Shown here: positions 19,956-63,326 of the stretch, in pieces
Numbering within the stretch: the first letter of the stretch is position 1
Layout of the letters: the number at the start of each line of letters is the position of its first letter
NCBI GenBank assembly: GCA_029820295.1
Contig: JALGVA010000006.1
Coordinates: forward strand, 1,793-65,792
Length of the DNA stretch: 64,000 nt
Direction: 5' to 3'
Source of the DNA: Candidatus Zipacnadia bacterium
GTDB lineage: Bacteria; Armatimonadota; Zipacnadia; Zipacnadales; UBA5352
Made by a program: the position numbers and the translations under genes
Notes under the pieces: generated by a model
The model's input: the letters and a program-made list of their open reading frames with translations, nothing else
What the model was told of the DNA's origin: nothing
The model's database searches: none

Positions 19956-20304
19956 TGGTGGAGGCGGCGGGAATTGAACCCGCGTCCGAGAAGGGGTGTC
20001 CGGAGCGTCTACGAGCGTAGTGCCCGCTTTGAGTAACCGGGGCGGCCCCCGAGCACCGGGTCCGCCGCGGCAAGCTCGACTCTGCTACCCCCGCGCGCTA
20101 GTCGAGCACAGGCGCGCGCTTCGGCCGATCCAATGACGTCCGGCCCCGACCTGATCGGCGGGAGGTCGGGCGGACGTCGCGACGATTAAGCCGCGAGTGC
20201 CAAATCGGTGTTGGCGTTTTTGGGGTTCCGGCGTTTCACGAGAGTCCGGAGATCTCGGCTCGCAGCCCCGACTCACCAGCTCCCCGTCGAAGCCGGTCGC
20301 CCCC
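19956..20304 (-). ncRNA. ssrA: transfer-messenger RNA (tmRNA)
   Basis: 5-prime GGGGGCGACCGGCUUCGACGGGG and 3-prime GGGUUCAAUUCCCGCCGCCUCCACCA. The acceptor stem has a G3:U pair. Internal reading frame GCC AAC ACC GAU UUG GCA CUC GCG GCU UAA (20186-20215) gives tag ANTDLALAA. 349 nt. Confidence 0.92.
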
Positions 20305-22395: not shown

Positions 22396-22473
22396 CGAGT
22401 CGGCATGCGGGCGGCGGCCCGCTGTTTGACGTTCCGTGGTCGGGCCATCACGCCGCACTCCCCGGGGGCTGGT

Positions 22474-23127
22474 GTGTCTCTGCTCAGGCGCCTGGAGGAC
22501 GCGCTCGAGACGGTCATCGACGGCGGGCTGGCGCGCGTGGCCGGCGGCGGCGTGCATCCGCTGGAGATCGCGCGCCGGCTGCAGTCCGAGATGGCCGACG
22601 GCCGGTTGCTGGGCACCGACGCTTCCTACGTGCCCAACCGCTACGTGGTCACGCTCGCCGACGTCGAGATGGACCACCTGGGCGACGTCGCCGCCGGGAT
22701 CGCCGAAGAGTTGGGCCGGCACCTGGAGAGGCATGCGGCCGAGGAGGGCTGGGCGGTGGGCGATGGCGTGACGGTGCGTCTGCAGGGCGGGGGCAGGCCG
22801 GGGCGCATCGCCGTCGAGCGCGACTTCGACGAGCGCGCGCCCGGCGCGCGGCTGCTGGTGGAGGCCGGGCAGGCCGGCGGCAGCTTCGAGATCGGCGAGC
22901 GCGCGGTCATCGGCCGCGGTCCCGACTGCGAGGTGCTGCTGACCGAGCCGGCCGTCTCGCGCCGGCACGCCGAGATCGAGTGGACCTACCACGGCTACCG
23001 GCTGCGCGACCTGGGCAGCCGCAACGGGACCTTCGTAAACGCCGAGGAGGTGGACGAGGCGCTGCTGGCCGACGGCGACCTCATCGAGGTCGGGCTGGTG
23101 CAGCTCCGCTTCCACCCGATCGGCTGA
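22474..23127 (+). CDS. FhaA-like protein (DUF3662-type N-terminal domain plus C-terminal FHA domain)
   Basis: GTG 22474 (GGGGG 5 nt upstream) gives VSLLRRLEDALE, like FhaA N-termini. C-terminal FHA signature IGRGPDCEVLLTEPAVSRRHAEI...LGSRNGTFVN. The track ATG at 22405 is an alternative start. Confidence 0.8.
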   Translation: MSLLRRLEDALETVIDGGLARVAGGGVHPLEIARRLQSEMADGRLLGTDASYVPNRYVVTLADVEMDHLGDVAAGIAEELGRHLERHAAEEGWAVGDGVTVRLQGGGRPGRIAVERDFDERAPGARLLVEAGQAGGSFEIGERAVIGRGPDCEVLLTEPAVSRRHAEIEWTYHGYRLRDLGSRNGTFVNAEEVDEALLADGDLIEVGLVQLRFHPIG

Positions 23128-23172
23128 CCTGACGAGCCCGCGCACCCGAATCTGATCGGTCCTGAGGGATCC

Positions 23173-23841
23173 GTGTTGGGCCTGACCCTGGTCGTGACCA
23201 TCGGCAAGTACCTCCTGCTGGCGGGCCTCTACGCCTTCGTCTTCGTGGTGTTCCGGGGCATGATGGGGCAGATCGCGGCGGAGTCCGCGCGCGCGACCGA
23301 GGGCGGCCGCCGCGGCCGACGCCGGGAGGTCGCGTCGCGCCGGGCCATCATGCCGCAGGTGACCACCCGCCCTGCGCGGCCACCGCGCGCGGCGAGCCCC
23401 CCCGCGCCTGAGCCTGCGCTCGAACGCGCGCCCCAAGCTGCTCAGCAGGCTCCGCCCGCACGCGAGGCGTCCGCCCCGGAGGCGGCACCTGAGCCGGTGG
23501 CTCCCGCCGAGACCCCTCCCGCCGCTCCGCCCGCGCCCGCGGCGCCGCACCTGCGCGTGCTGGAGAGCGACGACGAGCGCCTGAGCGCCGGGGACACGCT
23601 GCCGTTGAGCGCCGCGGTCACCATCGGCCGCAGCGATGAGAACTCGGTGCGCCTGTCCGACCGCTTCGTCTCCAGCCGCCATGCCCTGATCTGCCTGCGC
23701 GACGGCCGGCGCCTGCTGGTCGATCGCGGCTCCACCAACGGCACCTTCCTCAACGGCGAGCGCGTTGAGGAGGAGGTCGAGCTGCACGACGGCGACCGCA
23801 TCGCCATGGGCAACACCGTCTTCGAGTACCACGTGGGCTGA
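23173..23841 (+). CDS. FhaB-like membrane-anchored FHA domain protein
   Basis: N-terminal TM, Pro/Ala-rich linker, C-terminal FHA (IGRSDENSVRLSDRFVSSRHALI...GSTNGTFLNG). Confidence 0.8.
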   Translation: MLGLTLVVTIGKYLLLAGLYAFVFVVFRGMMGQIAAESARATEGGRRGRRREVASRRAIMPQVTTRPARPPRAASPPAPEPALERAPQAAQQAPPAREASAPEAAPEPVAPAETPPAAPPAPAAPHLRVLESDDERLSAGDTLPLSAAVTIGRSDENSVRLSDRFVSSRHALICLRDGRRLLVDRGSTNGTFLNGERVEEEVELHDGDRIAMGNTVFEYHVG

Positions 23842-23907
23842 CCCGGCCCGGACGCGGGTGGGGATCGCCCGGCCGCACCGTGCGCTGCCCCGCCCCTGAG
23901 TCGTGAG

Positions 23908-25203
23908 GTGAATGTGATTCCGCGCAGCCAGCGGACCGAGCTTGCCCTGCTGCTCTTCGCCGCGGCCCTCGTGGGCTTCGGCGCCGCGCTGGTGTGCCTG
24001 GGCATGGGCTTTCCGGTGTGGCGGGTGACGCGTGCCCTGGCGGTGGTGGGCGCCTTCATCGCCGGTGCCATGATGCTCGACCTCGCCGACCCGCGCCGCG
24101 ACCGCTGGCTGCTGCCCATCATGGCGGCCATCTCGGGTGTGGGCTTCCTGCTGCTGTGGCAGCTCGACGGCGGCTCGGCGTCGCGGCAGATCGTGTGGAT
24201 GATCACCGGCGCGGGCATCATGGTCGCGGTCTACTACCTCATCGAGGACGTGCGCGACCTCGCCCGTCTGAAGTACACCAGCGGCGTGCTGGCGCTGGTG
24301 CTGGTGGGCCTGACGCTGGCCTTCGGCGTGGAGAAGGGCGGCGCGCGCCTGTGGCTGGCGATCCCGGGCGTCATCATGTTCCAGCCCACCGAGCCGGTGA
24401 AGGTGCTCATGTGCATCTTCCTGGCGGGCTACGTGGCGGACCGCCGCGAGCTGCTGCGCGAGGACACCCACCGCGTGGCCGGCTTCCAGATGCCGCGCGC
24501 GCGGCACATCGCGCCCCTGCTGCTCATGGTCATCTTCGCCCTGACCATCTTCGTGGGCCAGCGTGACCTGGGCGCCGCCGTCCTCTTCTTCGGCCTGTTC
24601 GTGGCGATGGCGTACCTCGCCACCGGCCGCAAGTCATACTCCATCCTGGCGCTGGTGCTCTTCGCCGGCGGCGCCGTCGGGGCGTACCACGCCTTCCCGC
24701 ACGTCGCCGCCCGTGTGGACATGTGGCTCAACCCCTGGGCCGATCCGGAGAACCGCGGCTATCAGATCCTGCAGAGCATGTTCGCGCTCGCCGAGGGCGG
24801 CCTGGTAGGCACCGGCTTCGCCACCGGCGGCGGTGACACCATCCCGGCCGCCACCACCGATCTGATCTTCGCCGTCGGCGCCCAGCAGTTCGGGCTGCTC
24901 GGCGCCGTCGCCATCGTCGTCCTCTACGCCCTCGCCGCCCACCGCTCGTTCAGCATCGCCTGGCGTGCCACGGATAACTTCGGCGCGCTGCTGGCGGCGG
25001 CGCTGGCCGTCGTGTTCTCGCTGCAGACCCTGGTCATCCTCGGCGGCGTCACCCGGCTGATCCCGCTCACCGGCATCACGCTGCCCTTCATGAGCTACGG
25101 CGGCACCTCGGTGATCGTCAACTTCATCGCGCTGGCGCTGCTGCTCGCGATCTCCCGTGACTGCACGCCGCATCGCCCGCCGGGCGAGGTTCTCCCGCGA
25201 TGA
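23908..25203 (+). CDS. rodA: FtsW/RodA/SpoVE (SEDS) family peptidoglycan polymerase
   Basis: 431 aa and polytopic. Motifs LAIPGVIMFQPTEPVKV, TTDLIFAV, and PLTGITLPFMSYGGTSV at the C-terminus. Confidence 0.9.
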   Translation: MNVIPRSQRTELALLLFAAALVGFGAALVCLGMGFPVWRVTRALAVVGAFIAGAMMLDLADPRRDRWLLPIMAAISGVGFLLLWQLDGGSASRQIVWMITGAGIMVAVYYLIEDVRDLARLKYTSGVLALVLVGLTLAFGVEKGGARLWLAIPGVIMFQPTEPVKVLMCIFLAGYVADRRELLREDTHRVAGFQMPRARHIAPLLLMVIFALTIFVGQRDLGAAVLFFGLFVAMAYLATGRKSYSILALVLFAGGAVGAYHAFPHVAARVDMWLNPWADPENRGYQILQSMFALAEGGLVGTGFATGGGDTIPAATTDLIFAVGAQQFGLLGAVAIVVLYALAAHRSFSIAWRATDNFGALLAAALAVVFSLQTLVILGGVTRLIPLTGITLPFMSYGGTSVIVNFIALALLLAISRDCTPHRPPGEVLPR

Positions 25204-26600
25204 ACGAGCTGGCGCGTGCTATCAGGCGAGTCGCGCTCGTGGCCGCGGTGGGCTTCGCGGTGTTGTGCGTCTACCTGAGTTGGTGGCAGGTGCTGCGCGC
25301 CCCGGCGCTGCGTGCCGACGAGCACAACTCGCGCGCCCGCGACCGCCTGCGCACCATCGAGCCCGGCGAGGTGCTTGATGCCGACGGTGAGGTGCTGCTG
25401 GGCGTGGAGCGGGGCCGCGAGGGCTGGGAGCGCACCTACCCCGCCGGACGCTACGTCGCCCACCTGACCGGGTACAACGATCGCAGCGGCCTGCAGCGCG
25501 GCCTGCGCGACGCCCTGCTGGGCGTGGGCCGCTACGAGAAGCCGTGGGCGGAGTTCATCGAGGGCCCGCTGCGCGGCAACGATGTGAAGCTGACCGTGGA
25601 CCTCGATGCCCAGCAGCTCGCCACCCGTCTGCTGCGCGGCCGGCGCGGCGCGGTGGTGGCCCTGGGCGCGCAGACCGGGGCGATCCTCGCGCTGGTGAGC
25701 GCGCCCGCCTACGACCCCGCGCGCATCCTCGACAGCGAGTGGGACTACCGGCTCTTCCAGGAGGACCCGGAGCTGCCCGAGCTTGACCGCGCGCTGCAGG
25801 GCCTCTACCCGCCCGGCTCGGTGCTCAAGGTCATGACCGCCGCGATCGCCCTCGACCTCGATCGCGTCGAGCCCGACACCACCTTCGAGTGCGCCGGCAG
25901 CTACGAGATCGGCGGGGCCAAGATCACCTGTCCGCGCGCGCACGGCAAGGTCACGCTCGCCGAGGCGCTCGCGGTGTCGTGCAACACCACCTTCGCGCGC
26001 CTGGGCGAGTACGTCGGCGGGGACGAGTTCATCGACTACGTGCAGCGCTTCGAGCTGCTCGAGCCCGCGCACATCCCTCTGCCCGCGCTGCCGGGGAAGA
26101 TCGGCGACCTGGGCCGTCAGAGCGACGGCGTGCTGCTCGCCGAGACCGCCTTCGGCCAGGGCGAGACGCTGGTGACGCCCTTCGCCATCGCGCGCCTGAC
26201 CCAGGCGTTGGCCAACGGCGGCACCATGATCGAGCCCTACCTCGTCTCCGAGGTGACCTCGCCCGCCGGGCACGTCGTTGCGAGCGCCCGCGAGCGCGTG
26301 GCCGGGCAGCCGGTGAGCGCCGGCACCGCCGCCCAGGTGGCAGGGATGATGGTGGGCGTCGTGGAAGAGGGCACCGGGCAGGTCGCGGCGCTGCGCGGCA
26401 TCGAGGTCGCGGGCAAGACCGGCTCGGCAGAGAATCCGCATGGTGAGGCGCACTCGTGGTTCACGGCCTTCGCGCCCGCCGACCGCCCGGAGGTGGTGGT
26501 CACCTGCGTGGTGGAGAACGCCGGCGCCGGCTCCGAGGCCGCCGCGCCCATCGTGCGCGAGATGCTCACGCATCTGCTGCGGCGGGCGGGCGTGAGATAG
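25200..26600 (+). CDS. class B penicillin-binding protein (PBP2/PbpA-type transpeptidase)
   Basis: SxxK (GSVLK), SxN (SCN) and KTG (GKTGSAE) motifs in the correct order. Its ATG overlaps the rodA stop (ATGA). Confidence 0.9.
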   Translation: MNELARAIRRVALVAAVGFAVLCVYLSWWQVLRAPALRADEHNSRARDRLRTIEPGEVLDADGEVLLGVERGREGWERTYPAGRYVAHLTGYNDRSGLQRGLRDALLGVGRYEKPWAEFIEGPLRGNDVKLTVDLDAQQLATRLLRGRRGAVVALGAQTGAILALVSAPAYDPARILDSEWDYRLFQEDPELPELDRALQGLYPPGSVLKVMTAAIALDLDRVEPDTTFECAGSYEIGGAKITCPRAHGKVTLAEALAVSCNTTFARLGEYVGGDEFIDYVQRFELLEPAHIPLPALPGKIGDLGRQSDGVLLAETAFGQGETLVTPFAIARLTQALANGGTMIEPYLVSEVTSPAGHVVASARERVAGQPVSAGTAAQVAGMMVGVVEEGTGQVAALRGIEVAGKTGSAENPHGEAHSWFTAFAPADRPEVVVTCVVENAGAGSEAAAPIVREMLTHLLRRAGVR

Positions 26601-26601
26601 C

Positions 26602-28509
26602 ATGCGACGAGGTGATGCCAACGTGGAGGGCACGCTGATCGCCGACAGGTACCGCGTCGATGCCCTCATCGGCGAGGGCGGCATGGCCCTGGTCTACCGC
26701 GGCACCGACACTACCCTCGACCGCCGCGTGGCCATCAAGATCCTGCGCCCCGGGCTGAGTGAGCAGCACGACGTCGTCGCGCGTTTCCGCCGCGAGGCCC
26801 ACGCCGCCGCCAAGCTCAACCACCCCAACATCGTGCAGATCTACGACACCGGCGTGGACGACGGCAGGTACTACATCGTCATGGAGTACCTGCCCGAGAT
26901 GAACCTCAAGGAGGTCATCAAGCGCTACGCGCCGCTGCCGCTGGACAAGGTCGTCGAGTTCGCCGTGGCGTGCTGCGAGGGGCTGGCCCACGCCCATCGC
27001 CAGGGCATCGTGCACCGCGACATCAAGCCGCACAACGTGCTCTTCACCGACGACGGCCGGGCCAAGCTGTCGGACTTCGGCATCGCCGCGGCGGCCGGCG
27101 AGGCCGGGCTGACCGAGGACGGCAAGGTCCTCGGCTCCGCGCACTACATCTCGCCCGAGCAGGCGCAGGGCGCCGCCGCCGGACCGCTGTCGGACATCTA
27201 CTCCCTCGGCGTGACTCTCTACGAGGCCGTGACCGGGCGCCTGCCCTTCAACGGCGAGACCGCGGCCGACATCGCCGCCCAGCACCTGCGCGAGGCCCCG
27301 CCCTCGCCGCGCTCGGTCAACCCCGACATCCCGCCCGCCGCGGAGTTCATCATCCAGAAGGCCATGGCGCGCGATCCCCAGCGCCGCTACCGCTCCGCCG
27401 ACGAGATGCTCGCCGACCTGCGCAAGCTCGAGCGCGGCCTGGACCTCGATCAGACCGGCGTGCTGCCGCCCACGCCGCCGGATGCCACCGTGGCGCTGCC
27501 GCGCGCGCCCGAGTCGGCACGGCGCCCACAGCCCACCTACGCGGAGCCCCCTGCCGCCCAGGCGGTGCGCCCGGTCACCGCTGCGCCGCGCCGGCCCCGC
27601 CAGGAGAATTCGGCAAACGCCGTCCTCGCGGGGGTCGGCGTCGGACTGCTGGCGGTGCTGGTGATCGTCGCCGTCGTCTGGCTGGTGCGCGCCGCCTTCT
27701 ACCCGCACGCCACGCCGACCATGATCGAGGTGCCCAACATCAAGGGCCTCACCGAGCAGCAGGCGCGCGATGCCATCGAGGAACGCGGGCTGGTGGTGGG
27801 GCGGGTCGAGCAGCAGTTCAACGATCTGCTCCCCCAGGGCGAGGTGACCGAGCAACAGCCCGCGCCCGGGCAGATGGTGCAGTCGGGCTCGACCGTGGAC
27901 ATGGTCGTGAATCTGGGCAAGGAGACGGTCTCGGTCATCGACGTCGTGGGCACGCGCGTGGAGCGCGCGCAGGCGCTGCTTGAGGCCGACGGCCTCACCC
28001 TGGGCGAGGTCACCGAGTACTTCCACGAGACCGAGCCGGCGGGCATCATCTTCGAGCAGGCCCCGCGCCCGGGCACGCGCGTGGACAAAGGCACCGGTAT
28101 TGATGTGTCGGTCTCCAAGGGCCCCGAGGAGCAGGCGCCGCCCGAGGAGCCCACGGAACCGGAGCCCGATGAGACTGTCGAAAACGGTGGCGAGACGCCC
28201 GGCGAGGAGCCCCAGGCCGCGGACCCGCGCGTCTTCGTCGACCAGGTCGGGGAAACCGAGGCATCGGGGTTGCGCAAGTTCCAGGTGCGCGTGATCGCCA
28301 CCGGTGAAGCCCCCGACCAGCAGATCGAGGTACGCTACCGCGATGAGAGCGGCTACGAGCGCCACGAGGAGTTCTCCCTGCAGCCCGGCGACAGCCGCAT
28401 CGTCGAGATCCGCACCGAGGGCACGGTGACCATCACGGTCTACCACCAGGACGGCGTCGTCTTCGAGAACACCTACCAGCTCGAGCAGGAAGAAGAGGCC
28501 GCCCCCTAG
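26602..28509 (+). CDS. Ser/Thr protein kinase with TM segment and two extracellular PASTA domains (PknB-like)
   Basis: Hanks kinase motifs VAIK, HRDIKPHN, DFGIA, SPEQ. TM AVLAGVGVGLLAVLVIVAVVWLV. Two PASTA-like repeats (VPNIKGLTEQQARDAIEE..., VIDVVGTRVERAQALLEA...). Confidence 0.9.
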   Translation: MRRGDANVEGTLIADRYRVDALIGEGGMALVYRGTDTTLDRRVAIKILRPGLSEQHDVVARFRREAHAAAKLNHPNIVQIYDTGVDDGRYYIVMEYLPEMNLKEVIKRYAPLPLDKVVEFAVACCEGLAHAHRQGIVHRDIKPHNVLFTDDGRAKLSDFGIAAAAGEAGLTEDGKVLGSAHYISPEQAQGAAAGPLSDIYSLGVTLYEAVTGRLPFNGETAADIAAQHLREAPPSPRSVNPDIPPAAEFIIQKAMARDPQRRYRSADEMLADLRKLERGLDLDQTGVLPPTPPDATVALPRAPESARRPQPTYAEPPAAQAVRPVTAAPRRPRQENSANAVLAGVGVGLLAVLVIVAVVWLVRAAFYPHATPTMIEVPNIKGLTEQQARDAIEERGLVVGRVEQQFNDLLPQGEVTEQQPAPGQMVQSGSTVDMVVNLGKETVSVIDVVGTRVERAQALLEADGLTLGEVTEYFHETEPAGIIFEQAPRPGTRVDKGTGIDVSVSKGPEEQAPPEEPTEPEPDETVENGGETPGEEPQAADPRVFVDQVGETEASGLRKFQVRVIATGEAPDQQIEVRYRDESGYERHEEFSLQPGDSRIVEIRTEGTVTITVYHQDGVVFENTYQLEQEEEAAP

Positions 28510-28556
28510 ACGGGGCGATGGCCGGCGATGGGAGTGACGGAACGATGGCAGGGCAG

Positions 28557-29294
28557 ATGAAGCTGCTGCTGGGGGCGAGCGTGCTGATCCTGGCCACGGT
28601 GCCGTGCTGGTCGGCGCCGACGGTGGCCGGAACCACGAACCTGGTGGCCGCCGAGAACGGCGGCCGCATCGCCAAGTTCTCCAGCCAGGCGGTAGACGAG
28701 AACGGACAGCCCCTGGCCGTGTGGTCGGTGACCAACCTTATCGACGGCAAGTACGTGGTCGGCTCGCACACCCCCGCGGATTCCTACGGCTGGCGCTCGC
28801 GCGGCGTCCCCGCGGCCGACCGGCCCGAGTGGATCATCTTCGAGCTGCCCGAGACCCGGCTGATCAGCCGCGTGGTCGTCGATCCCACCACCGACGACCC
28901 CGAGTTCCTCGGCCGCTGGGCCAAGAGTATCCGCGTCTCCGTTTCCACCGAGGGCGTCGATGGCCCTTACAAGACGGTGGGCTCGTACCTGGTGGTGCGG
29001 CGCGGCATCAAGCAGAGCTTCGACTTCACCCCCGTTGAGGCGCGCTGGGTCAAGCTCGACATCACCGAGAATTGGGGCTCCGACTTCGCCGTCGAGCTGG
29101 GCGAGTTCGAGGTCTACGAGGCGATCGTGGGGGACGACATGCTCGATCAGCTCATCCAGCGGTTGAGCACGCTGCTCGACGAACTCAAGCGCTACCGCGA
29201 CGCCGAGCGCTACCAGCAGCACCAGGCGAGCATCGAGGCGGTGACCAGCAGGCCCGAGCCGCCCGCCGAGGAGGCCCCGGCCGCGCAGCAGTAG
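28557..29294 (+). CDS. secreted F5/8 type C (discoidin, galactose-binding-like) domain protein with C-terminal coiled coil
   Basis: Signal peptide MKLLLGASVLILATVPCWSAP. NLIDGK...W...EWIIFELP...RVVVDP...VRVSVS...RWVKLDI is discoidin-like. The track ATG at 28518 is an alternative start. Confidence 0.65.
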   Translation: MKLLLGASVLILATVPCWSAPTVAGTTNLVAAENGGRIAKFSSQAVDENGQPLAVWSVTNLIDGKYVVGSHTPADSYGWRSRGVPAADRPEWIIFELPETRLISRVVVDPTTDDPEFLGRWAKSIRVSVSTEGVDGPYKTVGSYLVVRRGIKQSFDFTPVEARWVKLDITENWGSDFAVELGEFEVYEAIVGDDMLDQLIQRLSTLLDELKRYRDAERYQQHQASIEAVTSRPEPPAEEAPAAQQ

Positions 29295-29345
29295 GCTCGC
29301 GGAAGGCGCGTCAGGAGGGGGCTGCCGCATCGTCCGGGCGCGATG

Positions 29346-29422: not shown

Positions 29423-30133
29423 ATGGAGACCATCTGCGCCGCTGACCGAGGTGTTTACACGCCTCGCCAGGTGTCTCTGCTGGTCAACCTGAGGCTTGAC
29501 AGCCGCTTCGACGCGGACACCTTTCGACGTTGGGCACATGGCTACGAGCGCGCGGGCCGCGTATACGAGCCCGTCATCCATCCCGAGTACGGTCCCGAAG
29601 CCCCGGTCCTGAGCTTCGTGGACCTCCTCGAGTTGATGTTCATTGGGGCATTGCGCCATCGGGACGTGTCACTGCCGGTCATCCGAGCAGCGGCACTGAA
29701 CGCTGCCCGGCGATTCCAGACCGATCATCCCTTCGCGGTCCGCAGGTTCCGCACTGACGGCAGGGCCATCTTCGCTGATCTGGAGCGCAACGGCCCCCCT
29801 CCCATAGACCTGCCGTCCCGCCGTCTGGTTGAGGAGCTTCACAGAGCCCAGATGGTGTTCCCAGAGATGGTCGAACCCTACCTCGAGGACATTGACTGGG
29901 GGGAGGTCGAGGCGCAGGCGTACTGGCCCTTCGGCCGAGAGGCCGGCATCGTGCTGGAGCCTGGCCGCTCCTTCGGCCAGCCCATCGACGCCGATACCGG
30001 CGTCCCGACGGAGGCTCTCTACTCGTTCTTCTCGGCGGGTGACAACCCGCAAATCATCGCCGAATGGTACGAGATACCCGTGGAAACGGTTGAGAGGGCA
30101 GTCGAGTTCGAGCGCGCGCTTCGGGCGGCATGA
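29423..30133 (+). CDS. DUF433-containing putative antitoxin with extended N-terminal DNA-binding-like domain (VapB45-like architecture)
   Basis: 236 aa. The C-terminal about 70 aa (PGRSFGQPIDADTGVPTEALYSFFSAGDNPQIIAEWYEIPVETVERAVEFE) match the DUF433/COG2442 pattern. The stop overlaps the next ATG (ATGA). Confidence 0.7.
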   Translation: METICAADRGVYTPRQVSLLVNLRLDSRFDADTFRRWAHGYERAGRVYEPVIHPEYGPEAPVLSFVDLLELMFIGALRHRDVSLPVIRAAALNAARRFQTDHPFAVRRFRTDGRAIFADLERNGPPPIDLPSRRLVEELHRAQMVFPEMVEPYLEDIDWGEVEAQAYWPFGREAGIVLEPGRSFGQPIDADTGVPTEALYSFFSAGDNPQIIAEWYEIPVETVERAVEFERALRAA

Positions 30134-30516
30134 GATTCGTCCTCGATGAGAACCTGCCACGTCAGCTCGCACGTCGCCTCGACGGCGAAGCCCGATTCCC
30201 CGTGGACCACGTGCTCGACTACCGCGAAGAGGGGAGACCAGACGAAGACCTCAAGGCGCTGGCCGCCGAGCAGGGCTTCGTTTTCGTCACGCGGGACTGG
30301 AACTTCATTCCACTTGACGTGACCCGCCAGACCTATCTGGATCAGCATGTGAGTGCCCTGATCTTCGTCGGATCACTGGGTGGGGCTTCGCTTCCGGAGC
30401 TACACGACTGGCTTCGCCGTCATTGGGCCCGGGTAGAAGACGCCTTCGCGAACGCCCGGACACCGACGGTCATTCGCGCCTACCTCGACGGGCGCCTCGC
30501 CGTTGATCCGTCCTGA
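30130..30516 (+). CDS. PIN-like DUF5615/COG4634-type putative toxin
   Basis: 128 aa. The N-terminus MRFVLDENLPRQLARRL is the hallmark of this family. 4-nt overlap with the DUF433 gene. GC is lower than the surroundings. Confidence 0.7.
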   Translation: MRFVLDENLPRQLARRLDGEARFPVDHVLDYREEGRPDEDLKALAAEQGFVFVTRDWNFIPLDVTRQTYLDQHVSALIFVGSLGGASLPELHDWLRRHWARVEDAFANARTPTVIRAYLDGRLAVDPS

Positions 30517-57896: not shown

Positions 57897-58316
57897 TTAT
57901 ACATCGAACACGACCGTGACTTCGAGGCCCTCAGCACTCTCGCGCACCTCGATGCCGTGGTAGGTCACGGCCTTGATGTGATGCTGCATCTCCTCGCGGA
58001 CCGCCGCCAGCGGCACCACCCCGACGCGGCAGCGGGCGCGGCCCGCGGCCGCGTCGAGCACCCTGGCCGCCACGGGTGCCAGGCCCTCGAGGTCGACAAG
58101 GAGCAGCACCTCGCGCAGGCAGTCGACCAGCAACTCCTCGGCCGATGCGCCCTCGCCCACCACCTCGGTCTCGCGCTCGGGCGGAGGGATATCCGCGAGC
58201 ATCAGGTCGATCATGCCCAGCGCCGCCTGCTCGATGAGCGCGCGCAGATCCGGCGCAAACGCCTGCACCGCCAGGTCCGCCGTGTGCCCGATGATCTGGT
58301 AGCGCGCCTCAGCCAT
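57897..58316 (-). CDS. archease
   Basis: Start MAEARYQIIGHTADLAVQAF. C-terminal IKAVTYHGIEV. 139 aa. Confidence 0.8.
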   Translation of the reverse strand: MAEARYQIIGHTADLAVQAFAPDLRALIEQAALGMIDLMLADIPPPERETEVVGEGASAEELLVDCLREVLLLVDLEGLAPVAARVLDAAAGRARCRVGVVPLAAVREEMQHHIKAVTYHGIEVRESAEGLEVTVVFDV

Positions 58317-58450
58317 GCGCTCCGACACCCTCTTCACGGCTGTGTTCGCCCGCGACCGCGAGGGACCTGCCGGATGCGGCAGCGGCGTGGGGCGCGGGAT
58401 GGCCCCCCGGGCCGATTGACTTTCGCCGGAGGGTACCCTATTGTGTTGGC

Positions 58451-59680
58451 GTGCGACGGCGCACCGTGGGGACCGTGTCGAACACGACCGCAAAGCAGGT
58501 TGGGAGCTTGCCCCTCAGACGCCTGATCCCGCTCGTCCTGGTCGTCCTGTCGTGCCTGGTGGCGGGCTGTCGCTCGTCGGATGAGGCGACCCTGGCTGCC
58601 GCCCTGGCCGATGACCCGGTGCAGACCGCGCCCGCGGCGGCGCCCCCGCCACCGCGCAGCTTCACCATGGTCGCGGTGGGCGACGTGATGCTCGACCGCG
58701 GGGTGTGGCGCGCGATACAGCGCTCCGGGTACGAGAGCATCTTCAACCGCGTGCGCGAGGACTTGCGCGCCGCCGACATCACCTTCGCGAACCTGGAGTG
58801 CCCGCTGTCCACGGTCGGGCCCCACGCCCCGAGCGAGCACTGCATCTTCCGCGCCGATCCCAGCGCCGTAGACGTGCTCCTCGACGGCGGCATCGACGTC
58901 GTGGCGCTGGCGAACAACCACACGCTCAACTCCGGCGCCGAGGCGATGCTGCAGACCATCGAGCATCTGGGCGAGGCGGGGGTAGCGTACTGCGGGGCGG
59001 CGGCTGAGCGTGAACGCTCGTGGGAGCCATGCCTGTTCGACATGGACGGGCTGGTAATCGGCTTCGTGGGCTGCACCGACCTGAGCTTCGAGCACGGGAG
59101 CTGGGCCAGGGTCGATTCCGAGATGACCGAGTTCGCCGAGCATGTGCGCGCGGCGAGGGAACAATGTGACCTGCTCGCGTTGTCCATACACTGGGGGAAC
59201 GAGTACCAGAAGGTGCCGACACAGCGCCAGCGCGACGTGGCGCACGCCGCCATCGACGCCGGGGCGGACCTGATCATCGGCCATCACCCGCACACGCTGC
59301 AGGGCGTGGGATCGTACCGGGGCGCGCCCATCCTGTACAGTTGCGGCAACTTCGTCTTCGACCAGCGTGAAGGCGAGCGCATGGAGAGCGCGATCTTCCG
59401 ACTGCGATGGACCGAGGGCGAGGGGTGGGAGATCCGCATGGTGCCCGTGTGGATTCCGCGCTCGCGCTGCGGGCCGATCTACCCCGAGAGCGCGCGGGCG
59501 GCGAAGATCATCAACCGCCTGGCCACGCTGTCCGCGGACCTGGGCGTGCCGGTGACGGTGACAGACAACGAGGGCCTGGTCACCATCCCCGTCGAGGATG
59601 TTGGCGAGGCCGAGACGGAGCCTGCCCCTGAGCGGGCTCGCGAAGACGCCCAGCCGGCGGCCGCGGAGCAGACCGGCTGA
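58451..59680 (+). CDS. CapA-family (PGA_cap metallophosphatase-like) lipoprotein
   Basis: Lipobox LVAGC. VGDVMLDR, ANLECP, ANNHTLN, IHWGNEY, GHHPHTLQG. Confidence 0.8.
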   Translation: MRRRTVGTVSNTTAKQVGSLPLRRLIPLVLVVLSCLVAGCRSSDEATLAAALADDPVQTAPAAAPPPPRSFTMVAVGDVMLDRGVWRAIQRSGYESIFNRVREDLRAADITFANLECPLSTVGPHAPSEHCIFRADPSAVDVLLDGGIDVVALANNHTLNSGAEAMLQTIEHLGEAGVAYCGAAAERERSWEPCLFDMDGLVIGFVGCTDLSFEHGSWARVDSEMTEFAEHVRAAREQCDLLALSIHWGNEYQKVPTQRQRDVAHAAIDAGADLIIGHHPHTLQGVGSYRGAPILYSCGNFVFDQREGERMESAIFRLRWTEGEGWEIRMVPVWIPRSRCGPIYPESARAAKIINRLATLSADLGVPVTVTDNEGLVTIPVEDVGEAETEPAPERAREDAQPAAAEQTG

Positions 59681-60659: not shown

Positions 60660-61139
60660 ATGGAGCCGACACTGCGGGCCGCCACGCTCGACGACATGCC
60701 ACGGCTGCAGCAGATCGTGCGCGAGGTGTGGGCCATCGGCTCGGACTTCACGCTCGAGGAGAAGTACGGGTCGGTGGGCGATGAGGCGTGGGACCGCTGG
60801 CTGGTACCGAAGGTGATGTCACGGTTGTGGGACGAGATCGGCACCACGCTGGTGGCCGAGGTGGGCGGAGAGATCGCGGGCTTCATCAGCTACGCCATCG
60901 ACCGTGCGCGCCGGGTGGGGACGATCCACTACAACGCGGTCGCTCCGGCCTTCCAGGGACACGGGGTGGGCACGATGCAGGTGGAGCGGGTGCTGGAGAT
61001 CTTCCGCGAGCAGGGCATGCGCATCGCGTGCGTGGGCACGGGCCTCAATGAGGGGCACGCCCCGGCGCGGCGGATGTACGAGAAGGCGGGCTTTGAGCCG
61101 GTGATCGAGTACCGCATGTACGCGCGCGAGCTGGACTGA
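60660..61139 (+). CDS. GNAT family N-acetyltransferase
   Basis: 159 aa. Acetyl-CoA motif A-like VAPAFQGHGVGTMQVERVLEIF and C-terminal RRMYEKAGFEP. Confidence 0.85.
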   Translation: MEPTLRAATLDDMPRLQQIVREVWAIGSDFTLEEKYGSVGDEAWDRWLVPKVMSRLWDEIGTTLVAEVGGEIAGFISYAIDRARRVGTIHYNAVAPAFQGHGVGTMQVERVLEIFREQGMRIACVGTGLNEGHAPARRMYEKAGFEPVIEYRMYARELD

Positions 61140-61196: not shown

Positions 61197-62546
61197 CTAC
61201 CGGACGAGGCGAGCGGCCTCGGGGAAGTGGTCGCGCACGACGGTGAGCGTCTGCTCGGCGTTGCGGCGCAGCATGGCGACGACGTCAGGCAGGTTCAGTC
61301 CCGGGCCCTGCAACGAGAGCAGTCCGGGGTGGGTGGTGAGCAGCTCCAGGTCGGTGCTGGCGGCCGTCTGGCGCGCATTGCGCAGCAGGTCCACCAGGTT
61401 CCCCCAGGCGTCGGTACCCACGTAGCTCCGGGGGGAGGCAAGCAGGTCGATCATGTACGCCTCTGCGGGCAGCCCCGCCCAGGCCATGGCGATGGCGCGC
61501 TGCAGGCAGGGCACGCAGCCACCGCACGGACGGTTCGCGCGCCCGGCCGCCCAGCACGACACGGTGGCCTGGATCTCCTCCGGCGACAGGACCGGCGCGA
61601 GCACATCGCGGACGAGGTCGGACTTGGTCTCGTAGACGAACGGGTTGCTGATGCGCGCGCGCAGGCCCAGAGCGGCGGCGATGGCGTTGAAGCACTCGAG
61701 GGCCGCCGGGTGCGTGGACTGCGTGGACATGCTGCCGGCGCGCGCGGCCGAGAGCGGCACGCCCGTGGTCATGGGGCCGTTCTCGCACATGAAGACCTCG
61801 TCGACACCCGCGCCCTCGGCGGTCACCGCGGCCAGCGCCATGAACAGCAGCGAGCGCAGGCGCCGCGAGGGCTCGCGCTCCTCCGGCGGCGGGAAGGGCA
61901 GGGCATCGGCGCCGCGCGCATCGGGCGCGATCGTGGCCTCGCACATGACGCCGGCGGCGGGCCAGTGGCGCTCGATGGTGGCGACGACGGCATTCTGAGC
62001 CGCGCGCGTCGTGGGGTTGCCGGAGCGGTGCATGACGTAGGCGGGCCGCCGGCCCCCCTGCTGGAGCAGGACAGCGCCCGCCAGTGAGTCGAGGCCGCCG
62101 GAGAGCATCGACACGCAGTCGGCCTCGGAGCCCGCGAGCGGCGACGCGGCGTGAGTGACGTCGGGGCACTGCGCGGCCGGGTAGAAGGTCAGCGCGATTC
62201 TGTCGCGGGTGAGCAGATGGGTGAGCCGGCCCAGGTCGGTGCTGACGGCGTCCCAGCTCTGCACGTCGCGCACCGGGATGGTCAGCTCGATGTCGCGGGA
62301 CCAGGCCTCACGCTCGCCGCGGCGCACGGCGATGTCGGCGGCGTACAGGGCGATCGCCACGCCCAGGAAGTCGCAGGCGGCGTCGCGCGCGGGGGAGGCC
62401 GCGACCTCGGCCAGGCAGGGCACACCGACGCGTACGTTGGCGCGCTCAGAACTCCAGTCGAGCAGCAGCTCGGCGGCTCCGACCTGTGGGCAGCGCCGGC
62501 CCGCGCGCTCGTGGGGCTCACTGGCGACAGCGAGGCGAACCGGCAT
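61197..62546 (-). CDS. QueC-like PP-loop ATPase with about 140-aa N-terminal extension (QatC/Cap9-like architecture)
   Basis: 449 aa. PP-loop SMLSGGLDSLAGA at about aa 148. C-terminal CWAAGRANRPCGGCVPC (C-x9-C-x2-C-x2-C) matches the QueC zinc-site pattern. The ATG is 3 nt after the upstream TAG, with GGAGGGGGGG inside the upstream gene end. Confidence 0.8.
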   Translation of the reverse strand: MPVRLAVASEPHERAGRRCPQVGAAELLLDWSSERANVRVGVPCLAEVAASPARDAACDFLGVAIALYAADIAVRRGEREAWSRDIELTIPVRDVQSWDAVSTDLGRLTHLLTRDRIALTFYPAAQCPDVTHAASPLAGSEADCVSMLSGGLDSLAGAVLLQQGGRRPAYVMHRSGNPTTRAAQNAVVATIERHWPAAGVMCEATIAPDARGADALPFPPPEEREPSRRLRSLLFMALAAVTAEGAGVDEVFMCENGPMTTGVPLSAARAGSMSTQSTHPAALECFNAIAAALGLRARISNPFVYETKSDLVRDVLAPVLSPEEIQATVSCWAAGRANRPCGGCVPCLQRAIAMAWAGLPAEAYMIDLLASPRSYVGTDAWGNLVDLLRNARQTAASTDLELLTTHPGLLSLQGPGLNLPDVVAMLRRNAEQTLTVVRDHFPEAARLVR

Positions 62547-62549
62547 CGC

Positions 62550-63326
62550 CTACCCCCCCTCCGCTCCGAGCCATGCCAGGCCCTGGTCGATCGCGGCCGC
62601 CATGACCGGCTGCAGCAGCGCGACACGTTCAGCCGGGGCCACGGTGAGGGTGAATGCGAGCGCATCCTTGTAGCCGTCGAGGGTGAGCGCCTGCCGGGCC
62701 TCGCGGCAGTGCGCGGCCACGGCGTCCTGCAGGCGGTTGGCGTGGCTCACCGTGGGCAGACCCTCACAGCCGACGAAGTCCGCGACGTCCCGGGCGACGA
62801 AGTGCCGGAAGGTGCGGTCCAGCTCGTGGCCGACGAAGAGCGCCGCCACGTCGTGCAGCCGCCCCTCGCGCGGGAAGCGGGCGAAGTTGTCCTCAGCGAC
62901 CGACAACGGCACCTCCATGATGCCCGCGCCGTCGCTGTGCAGCGTGGCGATGGCCAGTGCCGCGGTGCCGACGGCCTCGAGCGCCAGGTCGCCGAAGCGG
63001 GACGCGAAGCCCTCGTCGGCGATAATGCGCTCGGCGCGGTCGTGCAGGCCAGCGGCCATCTGCACCGCGACGGGCTCGCGTCCGGCGCCCAGATGGTCGA
63101 GGGTGGCGGCCAGACCGCGCTCGGCCACGAGCTGCGCGCCCTCCATCAGCGTGCCCAGACAGGTGATCGGCGCCGGCGCGCTCATGCCGGCGCGGGTGTC
63201 GGGGTCGAGGGCGGCCACGATGCGCGCGACCACCTCGCGCGGTGATGGGGCGGGCTGCGCGTACAGCTCGCGCACCCGACGCCACTCTTGCGTCTCGGGT
63301 GATCTGTGCCAGGTTGAAGTGCCCAT
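62550..63326 (-). CDS. 258-aa hypothetical protein starting MGTST..., candidate QatB-like partner of the QueC-like enzyme
   Basis: High GC3, helical-looking, no enzymatic motif. Tightly linked to the downstream QueC-like gene. Confidence 0.65.
   Translation of the reverse strand: MGTSTWHRSPETQEWRRVRELYAQPAPSPREVVARIVAALDPDTRAGMSAPAPITCLGTLMEGAQLVAERGLAATLDHLGAGREPVAVQMAAGLHDRAERIIADEGFASRFGDLALEAVGTAALAIATLHSDGAGIMEVPLSVAEDNFARFPREGRLHDVAALFVGHELDRTFRHFVARDVADFVGCEGLPTVSHANRLQDAVAAHCREARQALTLDGYKDALAFTLTVAPAERVALLQPVMAAAIDQGLAWLGAEGG

Follow-up and report, generated by a model that had tools for sequence, protein, structure and literature searches.

A QatB/QatC-like gene pair lacking QatA and QatD in a Candidatus Zipacnadia chromosome: a likely two-gene protein-modification module

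A 64,000-nucleotide stretch of DNA from Candidatus Zipacnadia bacterium (contig JALGVA010000006.1, positions 1,793 to 65,792), referred to here as the window, carries on its minus strand two adjacent genes. The upstream gene encodes a 258-amino-acid protein with a Met-Gly-Thr-Ser (MGTS) start, termed the partner, and the downstream gene encodes a 449-amino-acid QatC-like enzyme. We consider it likely, from the sequences of the pair and its relatives, that both proteins together make up a self-contained enzyme-substrate module for protein modification of the QatBC type, in which the partner would be the substrate because of its invariant MGTS start. In the QatABCD system, recent work identified the complex of QatB and QatC as the functional core. 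The features of the pair, in window coordinates, are as follows.

62550..63326, minus strand: partner open reading frame (ORF), 258 amino acids, beginning MGTSTWHRSPETQEW; all-helical, putative N-terminal-glycine acceptor.
61197..62546, minus strand: predicted QatC-like PP-loop ATP pyrophosphatase, 449 amino acids, with an N-terminal extension, a QueC-type core and a C-terminal extension.
63261..63326, minus strand: codons 1-22 of the partner, the putative acceptor tail MGTSTWHRSPETQEWRRVRELY, from conservation and alignment to the QatB tip.
62547..62563, minus strand: gene junction, with the Shine-Dalgarno-like GGAGGGGGGG, TAG and a 3-nt spacer leading into the QatC-like ATG, read from the sequence.
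62085..62102, minus strand: PP-loop SGGLDS, S149 to S154; S149/D153/S154 correspond to S156/D160/S161 of Pseudomonas aeruginosa QatC.
61707..61724, minus strand: substrate-site motif T275-Q-S277-T-H279-P280, corresponding to T278-R-T280-T-H282-P283 of P. aeruginosa QatC.
61506..61556, minus strand: zinc site C331-x9-C341-x2-C344-x2-C347, corresponding to C334/C354/C357/C360 of P. aeruginosa QatC.

Both minus-strand ORFs lie where a preliminary description of the window had placed them, and the 3-nt spacing and Shine-Dalgarno sequence that it reported can be read directly. The minus-strand letters of the junction are GCG GAG GGG GGG TAG GCG ATG CCG, with the partner TAG at 62550-62552, the spacer at 62547-62549 and the enzyme ATG at 62546; GGAGGGGGGG falls within the last partner codons. 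Across relatives, the distance between the two genes ranges from a 1-nt overlap to a gap of 6 nt. A junction of this form suggests that the genes would be co-transcribed and translationally coupled. The MGTS start of the partner is genuine, since the ORF has no start codon earlier than the one at 63326, residues 1-22 scarcely vary among 29 homologues, and annotated upstream extensions are unconserved. In L001, another assembly of the window locus, the public gene call (1311-2036, equivalent to window 62550-63275) begins at partner residue 18 and yields a protein of 241 amino acids. This start, 17 codons late, clips the MGTS tip; a similar misannotation is described in the QatB literature.

The enzyme was matched by models of QatC from PADLOC (PDLC02214, E=4.5e-55) and NCBIfam (NF041925, E=1.3e-60, 205.4 bits), and by the solved QatC chains 9zee_B (5.6e-36) and 9vlk_A (2.8e-29) in HMMER comparisons. 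Residues were mapped through the HMMER alignment to 9zee_B and through an alignment of 109 sequences, comprising 78 members of the enzyme's own family and 31 other QatC-like proteins. The PP-loop comes after about 148 residues, and its motif was invariant in both sets of proteins. Beyond the three motifs listed above, H173, R231 and F235 of the enzyme correspond to H180, R233 and F237 of P. aeruginosa QatC, and D59 corresponds to D63 of Escherichia coli QatC. The mapped catalytic and structural residues were invariant or nearly so in the 78 family members. All of the QatC signatures taken from the literature (PMC13329287, PMC13279940) were retained: SGGxDS; D..R..WxR; RxRxxxF; ExG; T-x-T-T-H-P; P(x)4TK; and the four zinc cysteines. 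Two of these were found in variant form. S277 stands in place of P. aeruginosa T280, a position that is Ser in 74 of the 78 family members and Thr in 27 of the 31 other proteins, and C-x9-C replaces C-x19-C, making the first zinc loop 10 residues shorter than that of P. aeruginosa QatC. The intact PP-loop and the C-x9-C-x2-C-x2-C motif noted in the preliminary description were thus recovered at residues 149-154 and C331/341/344/347, and its QatC-like assignment of the ORF was upheld. By these sequence criteria, the 449-amino-acid protein is predicted to be a QatC-type PP-loop enzyme and not a housekeeping QueC.

The C-terminal extension of the enzyme comprises 89 residues, 10 positions of which are at least 95% conserved, and the alignments to the models end at residue 357-369. 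A marked step was seen in sequence identity, which was at least 42% within the enzyme's own family and at most 34% to all other proteins; identity to a QatC-like protein confirmed within a qatABCD locus was 32%. These data suggest that the enzyme family is an old, separately evolving branch rather than the product of a recent loss. The pair had originally been proposed as a possible stripped-down version of the four-gene system. This proposal stands insofar as QatA and QatD are absent, and fails insofar as it implies recent loss, given the identity of at most 34% to canonical QatC-like proteins and the different C-terminal extension.

The partner begins MGTSTWHRSP, with M1, G2, T3 and S4 near-invariant in its family, and 69 homologues were found. 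An AlphaFold2 (AF2) model built from 29 sequences was all-helical, with 12 helices and a predicted local distance difference test score (pLDDT) of 93; confidence was low at residues 1-6 only, and the first helix began at residue 13. An exhaustive profile search extended the family to a superfamily of 271 cluster representatives at 50% identity. This superfamily contains a long MGTS group, to which the partner belongs, a short MGTS group of 185-235 amino acids, and a group of 255-265 amino acids with the pattern MGH-RLG-LPKT--W, linked to one another by hhalign at 99.9%. Across 112 superfamily sequences, the conserved positions were M1, G2 (100%), P10 (96%), W15 (100%) and V18, together with R179 and a few small or hydrophobic residues; conservation in the globular part was mostly of such small or hydrophobic residues. 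Thus, the N-terminal tail is the main conserved feature of the partner superfamily across three diverged groups.

A number of results weigh against reading the pair as a QatBC-type modification module. For the enzyme, the NCBIfam score lay below the QatC equivalog cut-off (205 versus 280 bits), with canonical QatC scoring 522.6 bits with the same model, and the last approximately 80 residues could not be aligned to the canonical QatB-binding extension. For the partner, none of the three PADLOC QatB models (PDLC02211-02213) matched the window protein at E<=1, and the set of 29 aligned family members to which it belongs gave no match at E<=10 either; canonical QatB scored 7.7e-75 with these models. 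None of the 69 homologues carried PF28083 (QatB) in precomputed Pfam annotation, a domain present in canonical QatB. The local copy of Pfam-A did not contain PF28083, and its failure to match the partner carries no weight on this question. Searches of the partner against PDB chains, local Pfam-A, NCBIfam and PADLOC gave nothing significant. Foldseek comparison of the confident partner model gave no match at E<=0.001 in PDB or BFVD, and solved QatB (9y01_A) was not among the matches listed, whereas a model of canonical QatB (P0190) used as a control found 9y01_A and 9y02_A at 1.5e-9 with a TM of 0.87. When a narrow profile of the partner family was compared by hhalign, the MGTSxxxxxP tip (12 columns) alone aligned with QatB, with a similar outcome for single QatB sequences and for a QatB alignment. 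Finally, there is dispute over what canonical QatC takes as its first substrate, two groups having reported no activity with 7-carboxy-7-deazaguanine (CDG) (PMC13376578, PMC13639016).

The narrow-profile comparison had led to the conclusion that the partner was not homologous to QatB, which was revised when a broad-profile comparison with controls gave a signal. The broad superfamily profile aligned with 109 QatB sequences with an hhalign probability of 82% (P=1e-5, score 43.4, 160 columns), and scores of 8-21 were obtained with 4 reversed and 20 column-shuffled control alignments. The alignment spanned partner residues 60-255 and QatB residues 120-284 and paired the most conserved motifs in the same order. 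Colinear matches between the partner superfamily and QatB were also obtained by hmmsearch (best E=7e-5), and helix order was colinear between the AF2 models of the partner and canonical QatB. The canonical QatB model was disordered to approximately residue 65. QatB has been described as having a disordered linker of 30-90 residues (PMC13279940), and the partner has no N-terminal linker of this length. Collectively, these data suggest that the partner probably belongs to the QatB superfamily as a very remote member that lost this linker. The earlier view of the partner as QatB-like is therefore borne out by its MGTS tip and by the position of its gene directly upstream of the enzyme gene; QatB models and Foldseek did not return it, and the globular part was linked to QatB by the broad profile only.

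Published work on canonical systems provides the basis for a proposed mechanism. The MGTS motif and G2 of QatB and the PP-loop of QatC are essential, and a G2D substitution abolishes defence (PMC13279940, PMC13639016). T278 and T280 of P. aeruginosa QatC are likewise essential, and protection against lambda-vir needs no more than QatBC (PMC13279940). Crystal structures place Gly2 of QatB in the QatC active site (PMC13376578, PMC13639016), and a GTSKAY peptide of E. coli QatB modified with NDG was detected at a low level (PMC13639016). Attempts to obtain QatC activity with CDG in vitro have so far been negative, and the Thr/Thr site of QatC suggests that its first substrate may differ (PMC13279940, PMC13376578). 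In the type IV cyclic-oligonucleotide-based anti-phage signalling system (CBASS), Cap9 ligates CDG to Gly2 of CdnD after Met removal through QueC-like adenylation, and the adduct, NDG (+176 Da), has been demonstrated (10.1101/2025.04.06.647259).

By analogy with these systems, methionine aminopeptidase would strip Met1 from the partner, as is the established general rule, and expose Gly2. The short conserved tail would then insert into the QatC-like site, as in the solved QatB-QatC and CdnD-Cap9 complexes. The PP-loop and ATP would adenylate a carboxylate first substrate, possibly CDG, and attack by the Gly2 amine on the activated group would form an N-terminal amide adduct. Loss of the linker would require the helical body of the partner to dock close to the enzyme. 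The modified partner would presumably be a sensor, a switch or an effector.

Comparison with QatB-QatC of P. aeruginosa and E. coli (PDB 9y01/9y02, 9zee, 9vlk) showed a common enzyme extension, PP-loop, T-x-T/S-T-H-P motif and set of four zinc cysteines. In both cases the partner gene directly precedes the enzyme gene, and the partner shares with QatB the MGTS start, Pro at position 10 and a helical body of similar size with colinear helices and remote profile similarity. The enzyme differs in being approximately 30% identical to canonical QatC and below the equivalog cut-off, and in its Ser at the T280 position, shorter zinc loop and unalignable C-terminal extension. The partner differs in being missed by QatB models and Foldseek, in having its first helix at residue 13 with no disordered linker, and in the placement of its Trp, five residues after Pro (P10, W15) rather than two (P16, W18 in QatB). 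At the level of the locus, QatA (KAP NTPase) and QatD (TatD) were missing from all Armatimonadota loci examined, and the Armatimonadota pair occupies core-gene chromosomal neighbourhoods, not defence islands or plasmids. The locus would work like QatBC while scoring below the QatC equivalog, escaping the QatB models and lacking the four-gene arrangement.

The resemblance to type IV CBASS lies in a QueC-family enzyme that modifies Gly2 of a Met-Gly partner inserting its N-terminal tail. Cap9 differs in being a minimal protein that keeps the QueC Tyr/Asp motif, in having a CD-NTase as its partner, and in requiring Cap10 (TGT-like) and an effector. CD-NTase and TGT families were absent from the neighbourhoods examined by Pfam (L001 and relatives), and the enzyme has 449 amino acids and QatC motifs. 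The preliminary description had grouped Cap9 with the extended QueC-like proteins; this was incorrect, as Cap9 has approximately 185 amino acids (PMC13329287).

The distribution of the pair was scanned in one genome per GTDB species. The partner gene was found in 45 species, and all of those with names belong to Armatimonadota (class Zipacnadia, 'Armatimonadia' metagenome-assembled genomes and 'WS1'). A QatC-like gene directly followed the partner gene in 41 of the 41 loci with enough downstream DNA. No QatA, QatB or QatD was found by tblastn of the canonical proteins against the 45 loci, and KAP NTPase and TatD were absent by Pfam from seven longer neighbourhoods (L001, L002, L004-L007 and L015); both were detected in the canonical control loci L008, L009 and L011. 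The lack of QatA and QatD first noted in the window extends to related loci, over as much as 6-10 kb to either side if the contig is long enough. In a published survey, qatA or qatD was close by for only about one third of QatC-cluster genes, and the remainder went without comment (PMC13329287). Our literature search turned up no paper on naturally occurring QatC systems of two genes with a partner of this family.

More distant relatives of the partner were also followed by a QatC-like gene in every case with a readable neighbourhood (L061, L062, L063, L064/65, L067/68 and L012). L062 consists of a short MGTS partner and a QatC-like protein, and L061 is a fragment. In L012 (6469-9954), a protein with a FokI cleavage domain is found together with a 195-amino-acid MGTS partner, a QatC-like protein (P0157) and a 205-amino-acid unknown protein. 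In L067/68 (L067 7001-9506, Candidatus Aadella gelida), an MGTS partner and a 583-amino-acid QatC-like protein lie within a type I restriction-modification island. In L063 (5548-8192), L064 (6952-9611) and L065 (1563-4222), a 260-amino-acid partner of the form MGH..LG.LP.T..W precedes a QatC-like protein of 621-625 amino acids, which is fused to a DpnII/MboI-type restriction endonuclease domain. This nuclease-fused arrangement occurs on a Leptospira noguchii plasmid (L063), which was reached through one plasmid match of the MGH group, and in metagenomes, where L064 lies next to a SIR2-TPR protein. The combination of an MGH partner with a nuclease-fused QatC-like protein is apparently an undescribed architecture. 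The distant pairs, with their nuclease fusions and restriction-modification island, look like defence systems. They share the partner superfamily, gene order and QatC-like core with the Armatimonadota pair, which has neither their effector domains nor a defence island.

Anti-phage defence is the likeliest role of the Armatimonadota pair, in view of its homology to QatBC and its distant relatives in defence islands, and we judge the chances of such a role to be about even. The genomic setting of the pair speaks against it. No copies of the Armatimonadota partner were found on plasmids or viral contigs, and within this clade the module is passed on stably as a chromosomal pair that neither a nuclease nor an ATPase accompanies. 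The site GNAT-PPIase(-PGA_cap-archease-ECF sigma), where PPIase denotes peptidyl-prolyl isomerase, is common to 13 GTDB species, across which the identity of the partner declines from 83% to 52%, as does that of the flanking genes alongside it. In a second group of 9 species the pair lies beside dnaA/dnaN, and in further loci it has HAD-DHDPS neighbours. Housekeeping flanks and occupation of the same site down to 52% partner identity are not defence-like, and the pair looks vertically inherited among housekeeping genes.

Clustering of the ORFs of the 45 loci, in which a third conserved gene of the module was sought, turned up nothing but the GNAT gene, the sole recurrent extra neighbour, and a third component was rejected.

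60660..61139, plus strand: GNAT acetyltransferase, 159 amino acids, convergent with the pair and its frequent neighbour.

GNAT was adjacent to the pair in 19 of the 41 GTDB loci, even where all other neighbours differed. Among metagenome loci probed with GNAT and containing enough DNA, the pair was next to GNAT in 23 of 34. Since it was not alongside in the other 11, the pair is common but not universal at the GNAT site. One of these loci, L092 (1240-2277), keeps the PPIase-GNAT synteny and has something other than the pair after GNAT. The site there may be empty or hold a replacement, which is relevant to the core or accessory status of the pair. With a mean identity of 79% and 60 invariant columns across 14 orthologues, GNAT was conserved far more strongly than the pair, and its best named match was RimI, an N-terminal acetyltransferase, at 34.8 bits against a cut-off of 86.4. 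A functional link between GNAT and modification of an N-terminal glycine is speculative.

These observations are also the grounds for an alternative in which the module is no longer, or never was, immune in this clade and is instead a domesticated, vertically inherited system of N-terminal modification with a regulatory or housekeeping function, which may connect to the RimI-like GNAT, for instance if the two compete in modifying an N-terminus. We regard this alternative as unlikely, although it accommodates the shared site and parallel divergence in 13 species, the dnaA/dnaN location in 9, the lack of mobile-element, plasmid or viral copies, the core-chromosome character of the window with its transfer-messenger RNA (tmRNA) and cell-division genes, and the retention of GNAT adjacency where no other neighbour is common. 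Against it, the closest characterised relatives are all anti-phage (PMC13279940) and the more distant superfamily pairs sit in defence islands. The 11 GNAT loci with no adjacent pair, one of them with the same PPIase neighbour, make the distribution possibly patchy, and GNAT is convergent with the pair, not co-transcribed, and far under the RimI cut-off. It seems quite unlikely that, in Zipacnadia and relatives specifically, a domesticated pair tags the N-terminal Gly of one dedicated protein with a nucleobase-like adduct in a non-defence regulatory or housekeeping role and might interact with the RimI-like GNAT. If true, this protein modification would for the first time be seen to serve a purpose other than immunity.

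An enzyme acting on a small molecule or nucleic acid, with the partner as a regulator, chaperone or immunity factor and the likeness of its tip to QatB convergent or fortuitous, would explain why the globular part of the partner is not recognised as QatB by family models or Foldseek; modification of canonical QatB has also been hard to show in vitro (PMC13279940, PMC13376578). We find this improbable, in that the tail M1-G2...P10...W15...V18 is the most conserved feature in all three superfamily groups, crystal structures place the Gly2 of QatB in the QatC active site (PMC13376578, PMC13639016), and the remote-homology signal exceeds all controls.

That the 449-amino-acid protein serves the organism as its housekeeping QueC (preQ0 synthase), enlarged by extra domains and preceded by an unrelated ORF, can be given almost no credence: Pfam QueC covers the C-terminal half of the enzyme (E=2.2e-7, 31 bits), its homologues are publicly annotated as '7-cyano-7-deazaguanine synthase', and the PP-loop ATP pyrophosphatase fold, SGGxDS motif and C-terminal zinc cysteine cluster are common to both, but the QueC model TIGR00364 gave 21.4 bits against a cut-off of 150.3 (205 bits with the QatC model) and the QueC substrate motifs YPDC, VPxRN and YxQxHxxE are missing, and on these two grounds the identification was rejected. 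Moreover, E. coli QatC fails to complement a queC deletion (PMC13329287), the enzyme gene is strictly linked to the MGTS-protein gene, and queD, queE and tgt were not found nearby. The length of approximately 220-230 amino acids, queD/queE linkage and ammonia nucleophile that characterise QueC do not apply to the pair either. In a Pfam scan of 35 further ORFs (34 from the window and one from L001), which gave full lists of 24 and 16 families at E<=1e-8, and in the precomputed Pfam annotation of L001, no QueD, QueE, QueF, TGT, KAP NTPase or TatD was present, in agreement with the initial report that queD, queE, queF and tgt are lacking from the window.

Read as a QatBC-type module, the pair constitutes a natural two-gene version with no ATPase or nuclease, and it has a very short tail between the acceptor Gly and the helical body and a highly diverged partner. 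These properties make it a compact comparative system for a field in which the first substrate of QatC, the effect of modification on QatB and the way in which phage is restricted are the outstanding gaps. Features common to both branches (the tip, P10, the Trp and the QatC active site) probably reflect needs of the chemistry, and the differences probably reflect specificity. After the QatBC papers of 2026, the finding brings no conceptual surprise. Its use lies in offering a minimal system for comparison and in the evidence that it gives for under-annotated diversity of acceptor proteins. The PADLOC and Pfam QatB models miss the whole acceptor superfamily, which numbers 271 clusters at 50% identity; gene calling can remove the MGTS start, and pipelines label the enzyme as a queuosine-pathway gene. 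The nuclease-fused relatives suggest a broader, undescribed diversity of QatC-based systems.

The remainder of the window is core chromosome of 71% G+C, with a tmRNA and cell-division and housekeeping genes. The upstream neighbour of the partner is a 202-amino-acid ORF at approximately 63471-64079, read from L001, with no significant family and a single weak match to PF06439 (3-keto-disaccharide hydrolase, E=0.019). A sigma-70-specific promoter and terminator scan around the pair found nothing; such a scan is of little value at 71% GC. An archease gene at 57897-58493 (minus strand), 3 kb from the pair, belongs to the synteny group of the window, and RtcB, the archease partner enzyme, is found in the dnaA-linked group (L004 2930-4390) at 5-7 kb from the pair, which may be coincidence.

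Further from the pair, the tmRNA gene was located at 19956-20304 (minus strand) with the tag ANTDLALAA by ARAGORN and Rfam. Genes for FHA/FhaA_N, FtsW/RodA, a penicillin-binding transpeptidase and a PASTA Ser/Thr kinase at approximately 22400-29300 (plus strand) form a typical cell-wall and division regulatory cluster. A DUF6079 match was found among the ORFs spanning 19-30516. Two small ORFs at 29423-30516 (plus strand) have a third-position GC of 0.72-0.78 versus approximately 0.93 in their neighbours, and PIN_10 and DUF5615 matches fall in the same half of the window. The low third-position GC and these matches suggest that the two ORFs are a horizontally acquired toxin-antitoxin-like pair.

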